Positions 43,948-55,937 of a stretch of DNA of 64,000 nt are shown piece after piece (within the stretch, counting starts at the first letter, position 1; the number at the start of each line of letters is the position of its first letter). The notes beneath the pieces are model-generated. The model was not told where the DNA came from and did not search any database. It worked only from the letters and a program-made list of their open reading frames with translations. Made by a program: the position numbers and the translations under genes. The DNA is from Escherichia coli (GTDB lineage Bacteria; Pseudomonadota; Gammaproteobacteria; Enterobacterales; Enterobacteriaceae): assembly GCF_024502345.1 (NCBI RefSeq), contig NZ_JALDNN010000001.1; one strand, written 5' to 3'.

Positions 43948-44595
43948 GTGACTGATATGGCAACACTGAAGGATTTATCAAACCAGTTAAAGCAACTGCA
44001 AAAGCAAATCCCGTTTGCCACAGCTCAGGCGATGACAAAAGTTGTACGCCAGATTGAGTTGGCTCAGAAGACGGCATTCGAACGACATCTGGAGAGCCCC
44101 ACGCCGTTTACCGTTAAATCAGTTGGTTCGGTGGCGGCAAGAAAGAACAATCTGACCGCAAAGGTTTTTGTCCGTGATACCGCTGCTGGTTATCTGGAAC
44201 CATTCGAGTTTGGCGGAGAGCACAAGCTCAATAGCCAGGCTCTATTAAATCCCAAGAACGTTAAGCTAAACAAATACGGCAACATGCCGCGTAATAAGCT
44301 CTCACAGCTTAAAGCAAAGGAAAATGTATTCGTAGGTGAGGTTGATGGCGTTAACGCTGTCTGGCAGCGTAAGAAGCCGATGAAAGCTAAGAAGCGACGG
44401 GCCAAACGTTCCGCTAACGGGACGCGAAGACCGAAACGCAAACAGCGTTCTCCAAAGCTTTTGATCCGGTTTGGTGATGCGCTACCTGTGACTCCAGTGC
44501 TGGGGTATATGGATAGGGCCCGTACCATGGCGAACGCACTGCTACCGTCTGCTTTAAATCAGGCGATAGCAGAAGCCATCAGGACGGCAAAATAA
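43948..44595 (+). CDS. hypothetical prophage protein (215 aa) with Lys/Arg-rich segment
   Basis: ORF with a central basic tract KKPMKAKKRRAKRSANGTRRPKRKQRSPK; no recognisable catalytic motif. Confidence 0.45.
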   Translation: MTDMATLKDLSNQLKQLQKQIPFATAQAMTKVVRQIELAQKTAFERHLESPTPFTVKSVGSVAARKNNLTAKVFVRDTAAGYLEPFEFGGEHKLNSQALLNPKNVKLNKYGNMPRNKLSQLKAKENVFVGEVDGVNAVWQRKKPMKAKKRRAKRSANGTRRPKRKQRSPKLLIRFGDALPVTPVLGYMDRARTMANALLPSALNQAIAEAIRTAK

Positions 44596-44605
44596 AAGCA
44601 GTAAC

Positions 44606-45109
44606 TTATAAGTTAATTTCGCAAGCTTTTATGAAGCTGTTTACTGCAGTTGTCGATCCAGAAACATTGGCTGACATGGAATGCTGGTTTCCGCCATCCT
44701 TTGTTTGCACACCAACTAACACTTTGGATTTCGCCCCCTGAAGCTGCTTAAGCACTGTTTTCAGTTGGTCCGTGTCATCCGATTGAATCTGGAGGCTCTG
44801 AACATTACGTCTTGAAAGGGTAGCATCGAGCTTCACTGCGGTATTCCCGTCGACCTTCATTATCAGGTCCATTGGTACCTCTGATAGTGATTCGGTGCTT
44901 TTATCCATTTCAACGTATGCCGCCGATAGCTTTTCTTTAGTGCAGTCAAACACAATGGCGCCATTGTCGGATGAAACCTCGCCAAGCATCATTGCTTTCT
45001 TACCACCAGAGAAAAGGTCATCTTCAGTATTAGTTACCCACTGGGCATGAGCAATTGGTGATGCCAGCACTGCGGCTACGAAAGTTATTTTGATTATATT
45101 GTTACCCAT
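44606..45109 (-). CDS. secreted/periplasmic protein, moron-like, opposite strand to the phage late genes
   Basis: Signal peptide MGNNIIKITFVAAVLASPIAHA then a soluble domain; convergent with the neighbouring phage genes (Bor-like placement, but no lipobox). Confidence 0.5.
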   Translation of the reverse strand: MGNNIIKITFVAAVLASPIAHAQWVTNTEDDLFSGGKKAMMLGEVSSDNGAIVFDCTKEKLSAAYVEMDKSTESLSEVPMDLIMKVDGNTAVKLDATLSRRNVQSLQIQSDDTDQLKTVLKQLQGAKSKVLVGVQTKDGGNQHSMSANVSGSTTAVNSFIKACEINL

Positions 45110-45253
45110 TACATTCTCCTTGTATTGAATAGGAATAATCATAGTCGGAGCGAATGGTCGAAGCCATTAAAAAAATGGGTCCTTCCTGAGACTTTTGTAA
45201 GGCACGGGCATTGCGCGCCGCGGTGTTTTCCTAGCTACAACTTTCAGATTTGT

Positions 45254-45402
45254 GTCCCATGTCCCACCTCTGGCGATCATTACGGACACCTCGCCAGCTC
45301 TGGCTATTCCAGTTTATTCCAGTGGGACATTCTGGTGGGACATGGCAAAAATGTCCCAGGCGAATGTCCCACCCCAGAAAATGTCCCAGGTGATGTCCCA
45401 TG
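45254..45402. promoter_or_regulatory. array of 8 copies of (A)TGTCCCA, 6 direct and 2 inverted; putative cosB-type binding sites
   Basis: Motif at 45254, 45261, 45322 (inverted), 45335 (inverted), 45351, 45364, 45381 and 45393, the last overlapping the terminase small-subunit ATG; GC-rich gcgcgccgcgg lies just upstream (about 45212-45225). Confidence 0.45.
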
Positions 45403-45969
45403 ACCACGATGAACCAGAGTCAGTACGCACAACATTCAGGTGTGGATCGCAAAACAATTGGTCGGTGGATTAAAGCCGGGCGCTTCATTGTGATGGACGG
45501 AGACCTGATTGACGTAGAGGCCAGCGATGCGGCATTGAAGAAAAACCGCGATGGCAAAGACCCGCGCGCCTCGAACGCGAAGAAAAAGAAAACTCCCGTC
45601 GTTAGCGATAACGATGATGACGGTGATGAAATCAATAAAACTGTCCGCCAGATAATGCTCACTGAAGGGGCAGATCTTTCGAGAGAGGAAGCGGGACGTA
45701 TCCGCGAGAATTACATGGCCCTGCAGGCAAAGCTGCAGTATGAAAAAGACAGCGGCCAGCTTATTGAGCTGACAGCAGCCGAGGAGGTTTTATTCAACGC
45801 CTTTCGCCAACAGCGTGATGCCTGGCTTAACTGGCCGTCCAGGGTGGCGCCGCTAATGGCTGCTGATCTGGATGTACCGGCGGACAGGATGACAGAGGTG
45901 CTGATTGAACATGTCCACAAACACATCTCAGTCCTCGGAGAGCCAGAGTTTAACCCGGCAGAAGATTGA
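45400..45969 (+). CDS. terminase small subunit (lambda Nu1-like)
   Basis: N-terminal winged-helix region (RKTIGRWIKAG) and C-terminal resemblance to lambda Nu1; immediately upstream of the large subunit. Confidence 0.75.
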   Translation: MTTMNQSQYAQHSGVDRKTIGRWIKAGRFIVMDGDLIDVEASDAALKKNRDGKDPRASNAKKKKTPVVSDNDDDGDEINKTVRQIMLTEGADLSREEAGRIRENYMALQAKLQYEKDSGQLIELTAAEEVLFNAFRQQRDAWLNWPSRVAPLMAADLDVPADRMTEVLIEHVHKHISVLGEPEFNPAED

Positions 45970-48034
45970 GCGTCTTGAATTAAGCGTCCGCAAAGGCTGG
46001 ACACCCCCGCCGCGTATCAGTGTGCCGCAGTGGGCAGATGACTATCGTAAGCTGGCAAAAGAGGCTGGGAGCACTTCGGGAAACTGGGAAACATCGACGG
46101 TAGAAATTGCCCGCGGACCGATGCTTGCCGCGACGGAGTCCGGGGTTCATATCATCACTGTAATGTGCTGTACCCAGTTGATGAAGACAGCACTGCTGGA
46201 AAACCTTTTTGGCTATTTTGCCCACCTCGATCCTTGTCCGATACTGCTGCTGCAGCCGAAAGAAGAAGCCGCTGAACAGTTTTCGAAAGAGCGTATTAGC
46301 CCGCTGGTAAGGGTGACGCCGGTACTGCGTAAAATCATCGGTGATTCGAAACAGAAAAGCTCGAAAGAAACCATTCTTTACAAGGCATTCACTGGCGGAT
46401 TTCTGGCGCTGGCGGGTGCTGGTAGCCCTGATAACCTTGCGCGTCGTCCGATTCGTGTCCTGCTGGCGGATGAAGTGGACAAGTACCCGATAACCCGCGA
46501 AGGCGATCCAATTGCGCTGGCCGAAGAGCGTACAGCGACATTTGGCCTGACCTGGCTGTCTGTACGCGCCTGTTCGCCGACGGTGGAGGATGAGAGCCGC
46601 ATTGCTGACAGCTACGCCGACTCCGATCAGCGCCGGGCATCTGTGGTTTGCCCGCACTGTGGCCACCGCCAGTTCCCCGACTTTTTCAAACACGTTCAGT
46701 GGCCGAAAGAGGGAGATAAACACCTGACTAAATCGGCGATGCTCTATTGCGAATGCTGTGGTAGTGGCTGGTCCGAAGGACAGCGCCTCAGAGCTCTGCA
46801 CACTATTCGATGGCATCAGACGCGCCCATTTGAGTGCTGCGGGGAGCGGCACTCACCGCTGATGGATTATGACCTTGCCTGGCGGGCGGCAGACGAGGGC
46901 AGCGTTGAAAAGGTCTGGCAATGGTCAGAGTCGGAACGGCATGCGGTCTATCGCGCAATCTGCCCCTCCTGTGGAAAGGAGGCAGTCGATAACCACCACG
47001 CGGGGTACCAGGCATCCAAGCTTTTCAGCCCCTGGCAAAAAGATAAGCCGTCGGATATTGCGAAAAAATATATCGATGCGAAGGGCGATCCGGATAAGGA
47101 ACAGGCGTGGTGGAATACCCAGATGGGGCTTCCGCACCGACCTAATCATGGGAAACAGCTCCCTGTTGATGTTCTGCTGGCGCGCCGGGAAATATTTCCG
47201 GCCGTCGTTCCGGACGGGGTGGCATTGTTAACAGCTGGAGTTGATACCCAGGACGATCGCTTCGAAATTACGATCACCGGCTGGGGGAGAGATGAAGAAT
47301 CGTGGTCGGTCGCGCATGACGTTATTTATGGTGACCTTGAGACGGAAGAACCCTGGAAGCGACTGGATGCATACCTGAAACAGATCTGGCGACGTGGTGA
47401 CGGGCGCGGCCTGAATATCATGGCAACGTGCATGGACTCCGGTGGCCACCATACGCAGAAGGTATACGAATTCGCCAAAGAGCGTCTTGGCCGTCGTGTC
47501 TGGGCAATTAAGGGGGAGTCTGCACAGGGAGGTAAACGCAATCCTGTCTGGCCGACCAAACGACCATCATCGAAAAGCAAAGCCAGTTTCCGCCCTGTCA
47601 TTCTGGGGGTTAACTCAGCGAAAGACGTGATACGCGGTCGCCTGCATCTTGAGCCACCCAAACCTGGCGCCGCCGCTGCGGGTTATATGCATTTTCCTGA
47701 CGATCGCGATCTCGGGTACTTCAATCAGCTGCTGGCGGAGCGACTGGTTTACAAAGTCATTTCCGGGCAGCGGTACAGTATCTGGGAAGCAATACCAGGA
47801 CGAGCTAACGAAGCGCTTGACTGCCTCGTTTACAGCTATGCCGCGCTGTGCGGTCTCAAACATATGGGGTTAAAACTCAACGTCCGGGCCGCCAACCTCG
47901 AAGCCGATCCGGATAAGTTCCTGCCAGCGCCAGTTGGACAGGAAGAAAAAATCAATTACGAGCTGCCGGGTGCGGTTATTGAAGAACCAGCGCCGGTCAA
48001 ACGTAAGCGAATATCGCAACTCCTGCCGAAATAA
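45905..48034 (+). CDS. terminase large subunit (lambda gpA-like)
   Basis: 709 aa; conserved blocks shared with lambda gpA (VPQWADDYRKL, CPHCGHRQF, LTAGVDTQDDRFEITITGWG, ATCMDSGGHHT, NEALDCLVYSYAA). Confidence 0.9.
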   Translation: MNMSTNTSQSSESQSLTRQKIERLELSVRKGWTPPPRISVPQWADDYRKLAKEAGSTSGNWETSTVEIARGPMLAATESGVHIITVMCCTQLMKTALLENLFGYFAHLDPCPILLLQPKEEAAEQFSKERISPLVRVTPVLRKIIGDSKQKSSKETILYKAFTGGFLALAGAGSPDNLARRPIRVLLADEVDKYPITREGDPIALAEERTATFGLTWLSVRACSPTVEDESRIADSYADSDQRRASVVCPHCGHRQFPDFFKHVQWPKEGDKHLTKSAMLYCECCGSGWSEGQRLRALHTIRWHQTRPFECCGERHSPLMDYDLAWRAADEGSVEKVWQWSESERHAVYRAICPSCGKEAVDNHHAGYQASKLFSPWQKDKPSDIAKKYIDAKGDPDKEQAWWNTQMGLPHRPNHGKQLPVDVLLARREIFPAVVPDGVALLTAGVDTQDDRFEITITGWGRDEESWSVAHDVIYGDLETEEPWKRLDAYLKQIWRRGDGRGLNIMATCMDSGGHHTQKVYEFAKERLGRRVWAIKGESAQGGKRNPVWPTKRPSSKSKASFRPVILGVNSAKDVIRGRLHLEPPKPGAAAAGYMHFPDDRDLGYFNQLLAERLVYKVISGQRYSIWEAIPGRANEALDCLVYSYAALCGLKHMGLKLNVRAANLEADPDKFLPAPVGQEEKINYELPGAVIEEPAPVKRKRISQLLPK

Positions 48035-54438: not shown

Positions 54439-55937
54439 CCGTACCTTTCGCTCGTGTTCCCGATAACCTGCGGGTAGGGCTTTTCTTCGTTGAGTTTGAT
54501 AACTCAATGGCGAATAACGCCACTGCCACGCAGCGCACCCTGCTTATCGGTGGGATGCTCAGTACCGGCTCAACCCTCCCTGGTATTCCGCAGCGAGTTT
54601 CCTCTTCGGATACCGTCGGTGAGCTGACAGGAAAAGGGGGAATTCTGCAGGCCATGATGGCGGCGTATCAGAAAAATGATACCGCAGCCGAAGTCTGGAT
54701 CCTGCCGCTGGAGGAAGACTCCGATTCCATGGTGGCTGCAACCGGCACCATTAGAGTGAGCAGCGCACCGACGGAAACCGGAGTGATCTCCCTTTATATT
54801 GCTGGTGAGCGCATTCAGTTGACCGTTGTAGCAACAGATACGGTGGCAGCGATCGCCACCTCTCTGGCCGCGGCGATTAACGCAAAAACCACGCTACCTG
54901 TAACCGCCAGTGCGACTACGGATACCGTAACCCTGACCGCGAAGAATCTTGGTGCTACGGGTAATGGGATCGACATTCGCCTGAACTTCCTCGGCTTACC
55001 TGGAGGCGAGTCCACACCTGCAGGCCTGGAACTGACGATTACTGCTATGTCTAACGGAGTCGGGGCTCCGGATATTACCGGCGAGCTGGCAAACCTGCAG
55101 GATCGGACATTCGATTTCATCATCAACCCTTACGACGATACAACCTCGTTGAATGTGATGAAGGAGTTCCTGTCAGACACTGGCGGTCGCTGGGCATGGG
55201 ACAAGCAGCTTTATGGCCATTCCTTTGGTACAACCACCGGGACTTACGCCCAGCTCGGTACCAAAGGTGAGCTGCGCAATAACCAGCATGAGACCCTGCT
55301 GGGCGTAAATAAATCGCCGTCCCCTTCCTGGGCATGGTCTGCAGCTTACACCGGCGCAGCTGCGGTGAGTCTGCGTAATGACCCCGGCCGCCCGCTACAG
55401 TCGCTCGCTGTTCAGGGGGTGCTTGCGCCAGAACTGCAGGATCGCTTTGAGCTGACCGAGCGTAACAATCTGCTGTACAGCGGCATTTCGACATTTACGG
55501 TCGATGACGATGGCACGGTGCGCATTGAAAACCTGATCACCACCTACCAGAAAAACAGCTATGGCGATGCAGATGACAGTTATCTGGAAGTGGAGACGCT
55601 GTTCAGCCTGATGTTTGTGACCCGCTACCTGCGCACAGCGGTGACCAGCAAGTTTGGCCGTATGAAGCTTGCTGCGGATGGAACCCGATTTGCACCTGGC
55701 GCGGCGATCGTCACGCCAAACATTATCAAGGCCGATCAGATTGCCGAGTACCAGACTCTGGTATGGAACGGTTATGCGCAGGATGCGGAGGCATTCGCAA
55801 AAAATATCATCGTCGAGCAGAACGCCAAAAATCCGAACCGCGTCGATGTGCTGTGGCCGGGAACCCTCATGAACCAGTTGCGCATTTTCGCGCTGCTCAA
55901 TCAGTTCCGCACTCGGGCTGAATCAACAGGAGCTTAA
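54435..55937 (+). CDS. contractile tail sheath protein (Mu gpL-like)
   Basis: 500-aa protein followed by a 123-aa tube-size gene, a frameshifted chaperone and the tape measure: the canonical myovirus order. Confidence 0.7.
   Translation: MTVPFARVPDNLRVGLFFVEFDNSMANNATATQRTLLIGGMLSTGSTLPGIPQRVSSSDTVGELTGKGGILQAMMAAYQKNDTAAEVWILPLEEDSDSMVAATGTIRVSSAPTETGVISLYIAGERIQLTVVATDTVAAIATSLAAAINAKTTLPVTASATTDTVTLTAKNLGATGNGIDIRLNFLGLPGGESTPAGLELTITAMSNGVGAPDITGELANLQDRTFDFIINPYDDTTSLNVMKEFLSDTGGRWAWDKQLYGHSFGTTTGTYAQLGTKGELRNNQHETLLGVNKSPSPSWAWSAAYTGAAAVSLRNDPGRPLQSLAVQGVLAPELQDRFELTERNNLLYSGISTFTVDDDGTVRIENLITTYQKNSYGDADDSYLEVETLFSLMFVTRYLRTAVTSKFGRMKLAADGTRFAPGAAIVTPNIIKADQIAEYQTLVWNGYAQDAEAFAKNIIVEQNAKNPNRVDVLWPGTLMNQLRIFALLNQFRTRAESTGA

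Follow-up and report, generated by a model that had tools for sequence, protein, structure and literature searches.

We analysed a stretch of 64,000 nucleotides of Escherichia coli DNA (the window), in which a prophage carries its terminase genes. A gene for a gpA-type large terminase (terL) overlaps the end of a shorter gene lying directly upstream, and is followed by the genes for gpW, the portal and an S49 protease; this arrangement is consistent with the shorter gene being terS, which encodes the small subunit. According to the RefSeq annotation of identical E. coli prophages, in which the terS product is labelled 'hypothetical protein', a Mu-like contractile tail module follows the head and packaging genes, and on the upstream side there is a lambdoid early region with a Q antiterminator and a lysis cassette. 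The phage combines lambda-type head and packaging genes with a contractile tail. Of 5,426 complete E. coli genomes, about 59-62 (~1%) contain the region, and E. coli MLI104K1 and OW1E2 have a copy of the prophage at 99.9% identity. The features of the locus are the following:

45177 to 45183, + strand: cosQ-like heptamer GGGTCCT, within the conserved block GGGTCCTTCCT (45177-45187), 31 nt before the predicted nick.
45208 to 45219, no strand assigned: predicted cosN cohesive end GCATTGCGCGCC, 12 nt, a 5' overhang by homology with phage BZS1.
45220 to 45252, + strand: right flank of cosN, gcggtgttttcctagctacaactttcagatttg, common to all the putative specificity classes described below.
45253, 45260, 45352, 45365, 45382 and 45394, + strand: starts of the direct copies of TGTCCCA, exact matches.
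45253 to 45266, + strand: proximal tandem pair of copies, TGTCCCATGTCCCA, 33 nt after the predicted cohesive end, invariant in the alignment of the TGTCCCA (T) class.
45267 to 45322, no strand assigned: variable spacer of 56 bp, which drifts among relatives while the repeats stay fixed.
45323 to 45329 and 45336 to 45342, − strand: the two inverted copies of TGTCCCA, exact matches (TGGGACA on the + strand), 13 nt apart.
45352 to 45400, + strand: the four distal direct copies (45352, 45365, 45382, 45394), near-invariant in relatives.
45400 to 45969, + strand: terS, 189 aa, PHROG 57 'terminase small subunit' (E = 4.6e-36).
45911 to 48034, + strand: terL, gpA-type large terminase, PHROG 15 (E = 2.8e-233).

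Just upstream of cos, a 178-aa ORF (44606-45142, − strand; PHROG 19473, unknown function) opposes the late operon. Its product has an N-terminal signal-like hydrophobic segment, and its position recalls that of lambda bor; it is missing from some relatives, whose alignments begin at window position 45176.

The initial annotation had reported a dense array of TGTCCCA heptamers in front of terS, six in direct and two in inverted orientation, and the exact positions bear this out. TGTCCCA occurs nine times in the window, and eight of these copies lie inside 148 bp (45253-45400); the only other copy is at 55197. Shuffling of the whole window gave 6.97 copies per 64 kb, corresponding to 0.016 expected in 148 bp, and the Poisson probability of observing eight or more is 1.1e-19, or 7e-15 once multiplied by every possible start position. 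Since an A precedes seven of the eight copies, the repeat unit is really (A)TGTCCCA. Three finer details given in that annotation were also found as described: AAAATGTCCCAGG occurs twice, 30 bp apart (45348 and 45378); the A of the terS ATG, at 45400, is the final base of the last copy (45394-45400); and the GC-rich element gcgcgccgcgg lies just upstream of the array, at 45213-45223. The array fills the 180 nt between the 12-mer at 45208-45219 and the terS start, with its repeats spanning +33 to +181 after the predicted cohesive end. A Shine-Dalgarno-like AGGTGA (45387-45392) is located between copies 7 and 8, and copies 3-6 form a 22-nt inverted repeat (45322-45343 / 45351-45372). A structured RNA was considered and discarded, because the Rfam search of the region returned just a sub-threshold match to a miRNA model, which reflects this palindrome.

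Alignment of 17 diverged T-class relatives revealed little or no change in the (A)TGTCCCA units and drift in the spacers between them, most of all in the 56 bp after the proximal pair. This observation bears on the possibility that the cluster is functionless and arose by replication slippage or as low-complexity sequence. Short tandem units can expand, and the first two copies are perfectly tandem; nevertheless, the degree of clustering (P about 1e-19), the presence of both orientations at irregular spacings, and the occurrence in relatives of parallel arrays of other motifs at the same position are all difficult to reconcile with such an origin. The invariance of the copies amid changing spacers effectively refutes it, and we consider its probability negligible. 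Within the 56-bp spacer, a second short repeat, TATTCCAGT, is present twice (45305-45313 and 45315-45323), 10 nt apart and touching the first inverted TGTCCCA; the pair is kept in close T-class relatives as ttattcc[at][gt]tttattccag and could represent an extended site or the site of a second factor.

The identification of TerS was obtained solely through PHROG 57 and structural comparison. Searches of curated families gave no match to a Nu1 or small-terminase family, only Pfam HTH_17 (E = 0.28); NCBIfam returned no match, and a phmmer search of the PDB returned no gpNu1, only spurious matches to RecA fusions. The identity to gpNu1 is about 18%. In an AlphaFold2 model built from 23 sequences (mean pLDDT 78), residues 1-51 are predicted to form a helix-turn-helix with a beta wing (pLDDT 81-87), followed by a disordered linker at residues 53-75 and then a helical core. 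The modelled N-terminal domain is nearest to the DNA-binding domains of the lambda gpNu1 type, suggesting a winged helix-turn-helix of this kind, and its recognition helix reads DRKTIGRWIKAG.

To locate the predicted ends of the genome, the block upstream of the array is informative. The 12-mer GCATTGCGCGCC is identical to the annotated 12-nt cosL of Serratia phage vB_SspM_BZS1, whose ends were determined with PhageTerm on virion reads and confirmed by end sequencing against a prophage PCR product (PMC7556043). The right end of BZS1 reads ...GGGTCCTTCC...GCACGG, and in the window CACGG directly precedes GCATTGCGCGCC. The distance from GGGTCCT to the right end is 30 nt in lambda and 31 nt in BZS1. 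The flanks of the predicted cosN also resemble those of lambda (ACGG|...|CGCGGTGTTTTC in the window, ACG|...|CGCGGGTTTTC in lambda, whose right flank also reads CGCGGGTTTTCGCTA), and the alignment of the cosQ-cosN block of the window with that of lambda outscored 500 of 500 shuffles. By direct comparison, the cohesive end itself shares 5 of 12 positions with that of lambda (GGGCGGCGACCT). The site departs from a strict lambda-like definition both in its cohesive-end sequence and in its R-site sequence, whether of the lambda, 21 or N15 type. The early suggestion of a candidate cosN near gcgcgccgcgg turned out to be essentially right, since this element overlaps the 12-mer that is identical to the mapped end of BZS1. 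By homology with the end of the Serratia phage, the cohesive end of the E. coli prophage is predicted to be GCATTGCGCGCC. A headful pac site is not indicated, given that TerL is gpA-type and that in BZS1, whose cosN is identical, the cohesive ends are defined and 12 nt long.

Related loci were collected from viral contigs carrying the cosN core and filtered for the presence of GGGTCC upstream, which yielded 88 loci comprising 67 distinct regions; GGGTCC therefore precedes cosN in all 88 because it was used as the filter. A scan of 298 Gb of genome contigs with the 15-mer CACGGGCATTGCGCG, a pattern too short for this purpose, produced almost exclusively chance matches in unrelated bacteria, and the one locus that passed the GGGTCC filter (L225) was kept. 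The DNA search of a phage collection with a 901-bp query gave only a 76-bp match, to Citrobacter phage phiNP; in their DNA, the isolated phages are thus all distant from the query. The TerS proteins of phiNP and BZS1 are about 33% identical to that of the window over the N-terminal 63-72% of the protein.

The comparison with cos regions of related phages, which had been proposed as a check on the array, covered these relatives, which share the cosQ and cosN of the window. The right flank at 45220-45252 is conserved in the 17-sequence T-class alignment and also in the loci of the GGTAACA (G) class. In E. coli, the records that carry another array match the window only from 45176 to 45251, at 94% identity; these loci have the same cosQ-cosN block and a GGTAACA array with the same layout, together with another TerS N-terminus. 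We then assigned motif classes without preselecting a motif, according to which 7-mer was the most frequent between cosN and terS. The terS starts of the relatives were set by anchoring on the helix-turn-helix, given that TGTCCCA reads through in frame. Five pairs of motif and TerS recognition helix were obtained:

TGTCCCA (T class): helix [DN]RKT[IV][GST]RW, 24 of 24 distinct loci.
GGTAACA (G class): helix SRKT[VI]TxWK, 29 of 29 distinct loci.
TTGACAC: helix SRQALYTWEAKQ, locus L082.
TGTCCGC: helix D[DE]K[LQ]VRRA, loci L090 and L123.
TGTTCGC: helix SDTLVRRAV, loci L083 and L114.

TGTCCGC and TGTTCGC are one base apart, and the corresponding TerS helices differ at their N-terminal ends.

In the 53 distinct loci of the two major classes, neither TGTCCCA nor GGTAACA was found in the region of the other class, and no recombinants between motif and TerS domain were observed among 56 distinct loci. 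Two unrelated types of TerS C-terminal domain, alpha and beta, are each combined with either major motif (T-alpha 15, T-beta 7, G-alpha 10, G-beta 24), indicating that the motif follows the TerS N-terminal domain only. Likewise, cosQ, cosN, TerL and the TerS C-terminal domain vary independently of the motif. The covariation of motif and helix, in 53 distinct loci and the three minor classes, supports the earlier proposal that the array is a cosB-type set of small-terminase sites. The arrangement of the locus agrees with a cosB, with several repeats, two of them inverted, between cosN and terS; their status as candidate TerS sites is suggested by the covariation. Part of this covariation could come from tight linkage and not from co-adaptation, as the array adjoins the DNA encoding the binding domain.

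A particularly clear case is provided by loci L002 (GGTAACA) and L004 (E. coli HS, TGTCCCA), which are 95-100% identical over 3.7 kb except for about 540 bp. The 95-100% identity runs from 600 nt upstream through cosQ and cosN and about 25 nt beyond; the following ~540 bp, which comprise the array and the N-terminal two-thirds of terS, are at background identity, and the identity then returns to 80-100% over the rest of terS and all of terL. Judged from this alignment, the pair represents a natural cassette swap, in which the putative binding sites were exchanged together with the predicted binding domain. In the HS locus (NC_009800.1, 2080500-2081960), cos is preceded by a gene that lacks its 5' part and directly borders a truncated integrase adjoining tRNA-Ser/mtfA. 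From these truncations, the HS copy is a partial prophage without its early region, with cos and terminase intact.

These data also allowed us to evaluate whether the repeats bind some other protein, such as a host factor, a late regulator or a packaging-redirecting factor, and are linked to the TerS N-terminus by mere proximity. The array adjoins the DNA for the TerS domain and would be co-inherited with it anyway, and the second short repeat, the TATTCCAGT pair at 45305-45323, could be taken as a sign of an additional factor. However, each of the five motif classes has a distinct TerS helix, with 0 recombinants in the 56 distinct loci, and in the 3.7 kb compared between L002 and L004 the difference is confined to the array and the N-terminal part of TerS, with no neighbouring gene involved. 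A host factor cannot explain the switching of motifs within E. coli, and the layout and the distance to cosN match a lambda-type cosB. We therefore consider binding by another protein very unlikely, and TerS remains the preferred ligand of the repeats.

The arrays of the two major classes follow a common layout. In 24 of the 26 distinct T-class loci, and in all 39 of the G class, the first copy is placed +33 to +36 from the cohesive end; two or three direct copies are then followed by one or two inverted and three to six direct copies, with a median of eight copies in both classes. Neighbouring copies tend to be spaced by 7 nt in the proximal tandem and by 12-13 nt in the distal part. In the T class, the orientation pattern ++--++++ occurs most often, and the G class has a parallel to it. 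The terS start varies from 31 to 241 nt after cosN in the relatives; hence, the constant distance is to cosN and not to the start of terS, as would be expected if the repeats help to place the nuclease at cosN.

Two loci carry the site without terS. In E. coli 2015C-4136CT1 (L003; NZ_CP027550.1, about 1657900-1658120), cosQ-cosN and seven TGTCCCA copies are present with no terS; the homology to the intact locus L095 stops exactly at the terS start, and thiM/thiD are found 1.6 kb further on. This locus is probably a prophage remnant. The contig IMGVR_UViG_3300031419_000557 (L052, 5248-7529) contains cos and six TGTCCCA copies, with tail sheath and baseplate genes about 750 nt after the cos/array and no TerS or TerL within its 11.9 kb; the terminase and head module seems to have been deleted while cos was kept. 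We considered whether these two loci are satellites that hijack the terminase of this phage group, and regard this idea as unlikely, as both look like deletion remnants and nothing supports a satellite role.

A short form of the GGTAACA layout, represented by BZS1, phiNP and many contigs, has its distal cluster within terS, at +192 to +313 from the cohesive end. These intragenic copies are often 12 nt apart and encode a (Gly-Asn-x-x)n linker. Further short-form examples are L127 (copies about +200 to +300 after cosN), L013, L022 and L047, in addition to BZS1 (L008) and phiNP (L005) themselves. The Gly-Asn codon pairs of 35 distinct G-class terS genes are exactly GGTAACA in 111 of 122 cases, versus 0 of 14 in terL, a coding bias indicating that the heptamers are selected as DNA. 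Intragenic GGTAACA is absent from terS in 10 of the 11 long-form loci, and the other one, L037, has a single inverted copy at +386. The TGTCCGC and TGTTCGC classes behave likewise, with GCGGACA encoding Ala-Asp and GCGAACA encoding Ala-Asn repeats inside terS; in L090, L123, L083 and L114, the start codon of terS carries one repeat (+32/+33 after cosN), and three or four more copies, some inverted, are present about 200-245 nt after cosN inside the gene. From the codon usage, candidate sites for TerS appear to be written into the linker coding sequence of TerS itself in the short-form phages. One contig, IMGVR_UViG_2895364164_000011 (L085, 517-1100), has a long-form GGTAACA array and a TerS ORF that starts within Gly-Asn repeats and has no helix-turn-helix; either its TerS is defective, or the locus is transitional between the layout with all copies upstream and the split one.

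The location of the intragenic copies is relevant to the possibility that the repeats are indeed TerS sites whose main function is regulatory, for instance autoregulation of terS/terL through a block of transcription at the copy beside the start codon, and that packaging needs only one or two of them. That the last copy overlaps the start codon, that AGGTGA falls between copies 7 and 8, and that every class has a repeat touching or overlapping the start of terS would be in line with such a function, as would the finding that in the lambda-like phage N15 one R site only is critical (PMC4669245). In contrast, a promoter and terminator scan of 44500-46000 detected no promoter-like site in or near the array, the distal copies of the split layouts lie 200-310 nt after cosN inside terS and are still under strong selection at the DNA level, and the fixed +33 to +36 interval is measured from cosN, with the terS start at anywhere from 31 to 241 nt. 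A mainly regulatory role is thus unlikely, though marginally less so than binding by another protein.

Taken together, the eight TGTCCCA repeats are very probably the sites by which the small terminase of this prophage recognises the phage genome for packaging. On the basis of homology and covariation, we regard it as highly likely that 45177-45400 constitutes the cos site of a temperate E. coli phage, formed by a cosQ (GGGTCCT), a cosN (GCATTGCGCGCC) and a cosB of eight (A)TGTCCCA units. In the mechanism that we propose, the winged helix-turn-helix domains at the N-termini of TerS, flexibly linked to an oligomeric core, would bind the heptamer units. The proximal tandem pair, 33 nt from the cohesive end, would anchor the complex in a manner similar to lambda R3, allowing the gpA-type large subunit to nick cosN, while the inverted pair and the four distal copies would stabilise the post-cleavage complex on the chromosome end that enters the capsid first. 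The sequence of the heptamer would set the specificity of packaging, and relatives with the same cosQ/cosN/TerL chassis would use GGTAACA, TTGACAC, TGTCCGC or TGTTCGC with a matching TerS helix. More speculatively, several tethered domains of the TerS oligomer may bind independently, instead of acting through the IHF-bent R3/R2 hairpin of lambda; this suggestion comes from the variable copy number and spacing and from the predicted flexible linker. A scan for IHF sites (WATCAANNNNTTR, up to one mismatch) found none in 45220-45400 and so gave no support to such a hairpin; its sensitivity is low, since it gave only one weak match in the cosB of lambda.

A broader interpretation, which we put forward tentatively and consider somewhat doubtful, is that packaging specificity resides in an exchangeable cassette, made up of the array and the DNA-binding domain of TerS, on an unchanging cosQ/cosN/TerL chassis. 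Nature would hold five or more specificities of this kind, and about eight sites would be kept in every layout. If true, cosB would wrap around the TerS oligomer through multiple contacts without IHF, and specificity would be under diversifying selection, for example against cross-packaging between related prophages in one cell; in some relatives, the linker sites would yield the Gly-Asn, Ala-Asp and Ala-Asn peptide repeats. Five E. coli records (H62, H67, H69, H72 and H87) contain two separate matches to the cos region, that is, two related prophages per cell. Such cells would face the problem of cross-packaging, for which differences in cosB specificity could be relevant.

The element is of an ordinary kind, a lambda-type cosB, with a recognition sequence that is very probably previously undescribed: a text search of the literature for the repeat strings returned unrelated primer matches only, and the publications on BZS1 (PMC7556043) and phiNP describe no cosB or repeats. 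If confirmed, these results would locate the cos site, predict the genome ends and identify the small terminase for a widespread group of enterobacterial prophages. They would also provide a natural series of pairs of TerS helix and DNA motif on one packaging machinery, including near-isogenic swaps, which could be used to learn how small terminases read DNA and to engineer the specificity of cosmids, transducing particles and phage delivery. The general picture of cos packaging is unchanged.

The closest model is lambda, whose cos comprises the sites R3, I1, R2 and R1, with gpNu1 as TerS and gpA as TerL. The prophage shares with it the order cosQ-cosN-cosB-terS-terL-W-portal, the heptamer GGGTCCT at nearly the same distance from the nick (30 nt in lambda, 31 nt here), similar cosN flanks, a 12-nt 5' end (for the prophage, by homology with BZS1), a similar distance from the cohesive end to terS (178 nt in lambda, 180 nt in the window), and multiple TerS sites including inverted ones, those of the prophage being candidates. 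It differs in having eight units of 7-8 bp with an unrelated motif instead of three 16-bp R sites, in its contractile, Mu-like tail module, and in a cosB with no evident IHF site between the proximal and the inverted sites, according to the weak scan mentioned above. The initial annotation had already noted that the motif is unlike the lambda R sites, and indeed neither TGTCCCA nor TGGGACA occurs in lambda bases 1-240.

A precedent for changes in specificity exists among the lambda-like phages studied by the Feiss laboratory: in lambda, 21 and N15/Monarch, cosQ/cosN are identical or near-identical, the cosB sites diverge, and the TerS recognition helices match them; cosB layouts termed 'complex' and 'simple' have a specificity in common; and in N15 an accessory site in inverted orientation, rR2, is located within terS (PMC4669245). 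The split layout of the GGTAACA, TGTCCGC and TGTTCGC relatives is a parallel to rR2, although rR2 is a single site, whereas in these relatives a whole cluster of putative sites is found in the terS linker coding sequence. In comparison with lambda, 21 and N15, the present cos family is another one; five or more motif classes were seen in it, and each site holds many more copies.

Short repeats beside the terminase cut, bound by multiple TerS DNA-binding domains, are also known from the pac hexamers of P1 and the pacL/pacR boxes of SPP1. The locus described here resembles them in having several short repeats next to the cut site, where binding of TerS is predicted. In contrast, P1 and SPP1 package by a headful mechanism with no defined cohesive ends, whereas the prophage has a gpA-type TerL and its nearest isolated relative has defined 12-nt ends. 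The nearest isolated phages are BZS1 and phiNP, which have the same cosQ and the same 12-nt cohesive end, a homologous TerS, a gpA-type TerL, gpW, a portal and contractile tails; they differ from the prophage in carrying GGTAACA instead of TGTCCCA, with three copies upstream of terS and the rest inside it.
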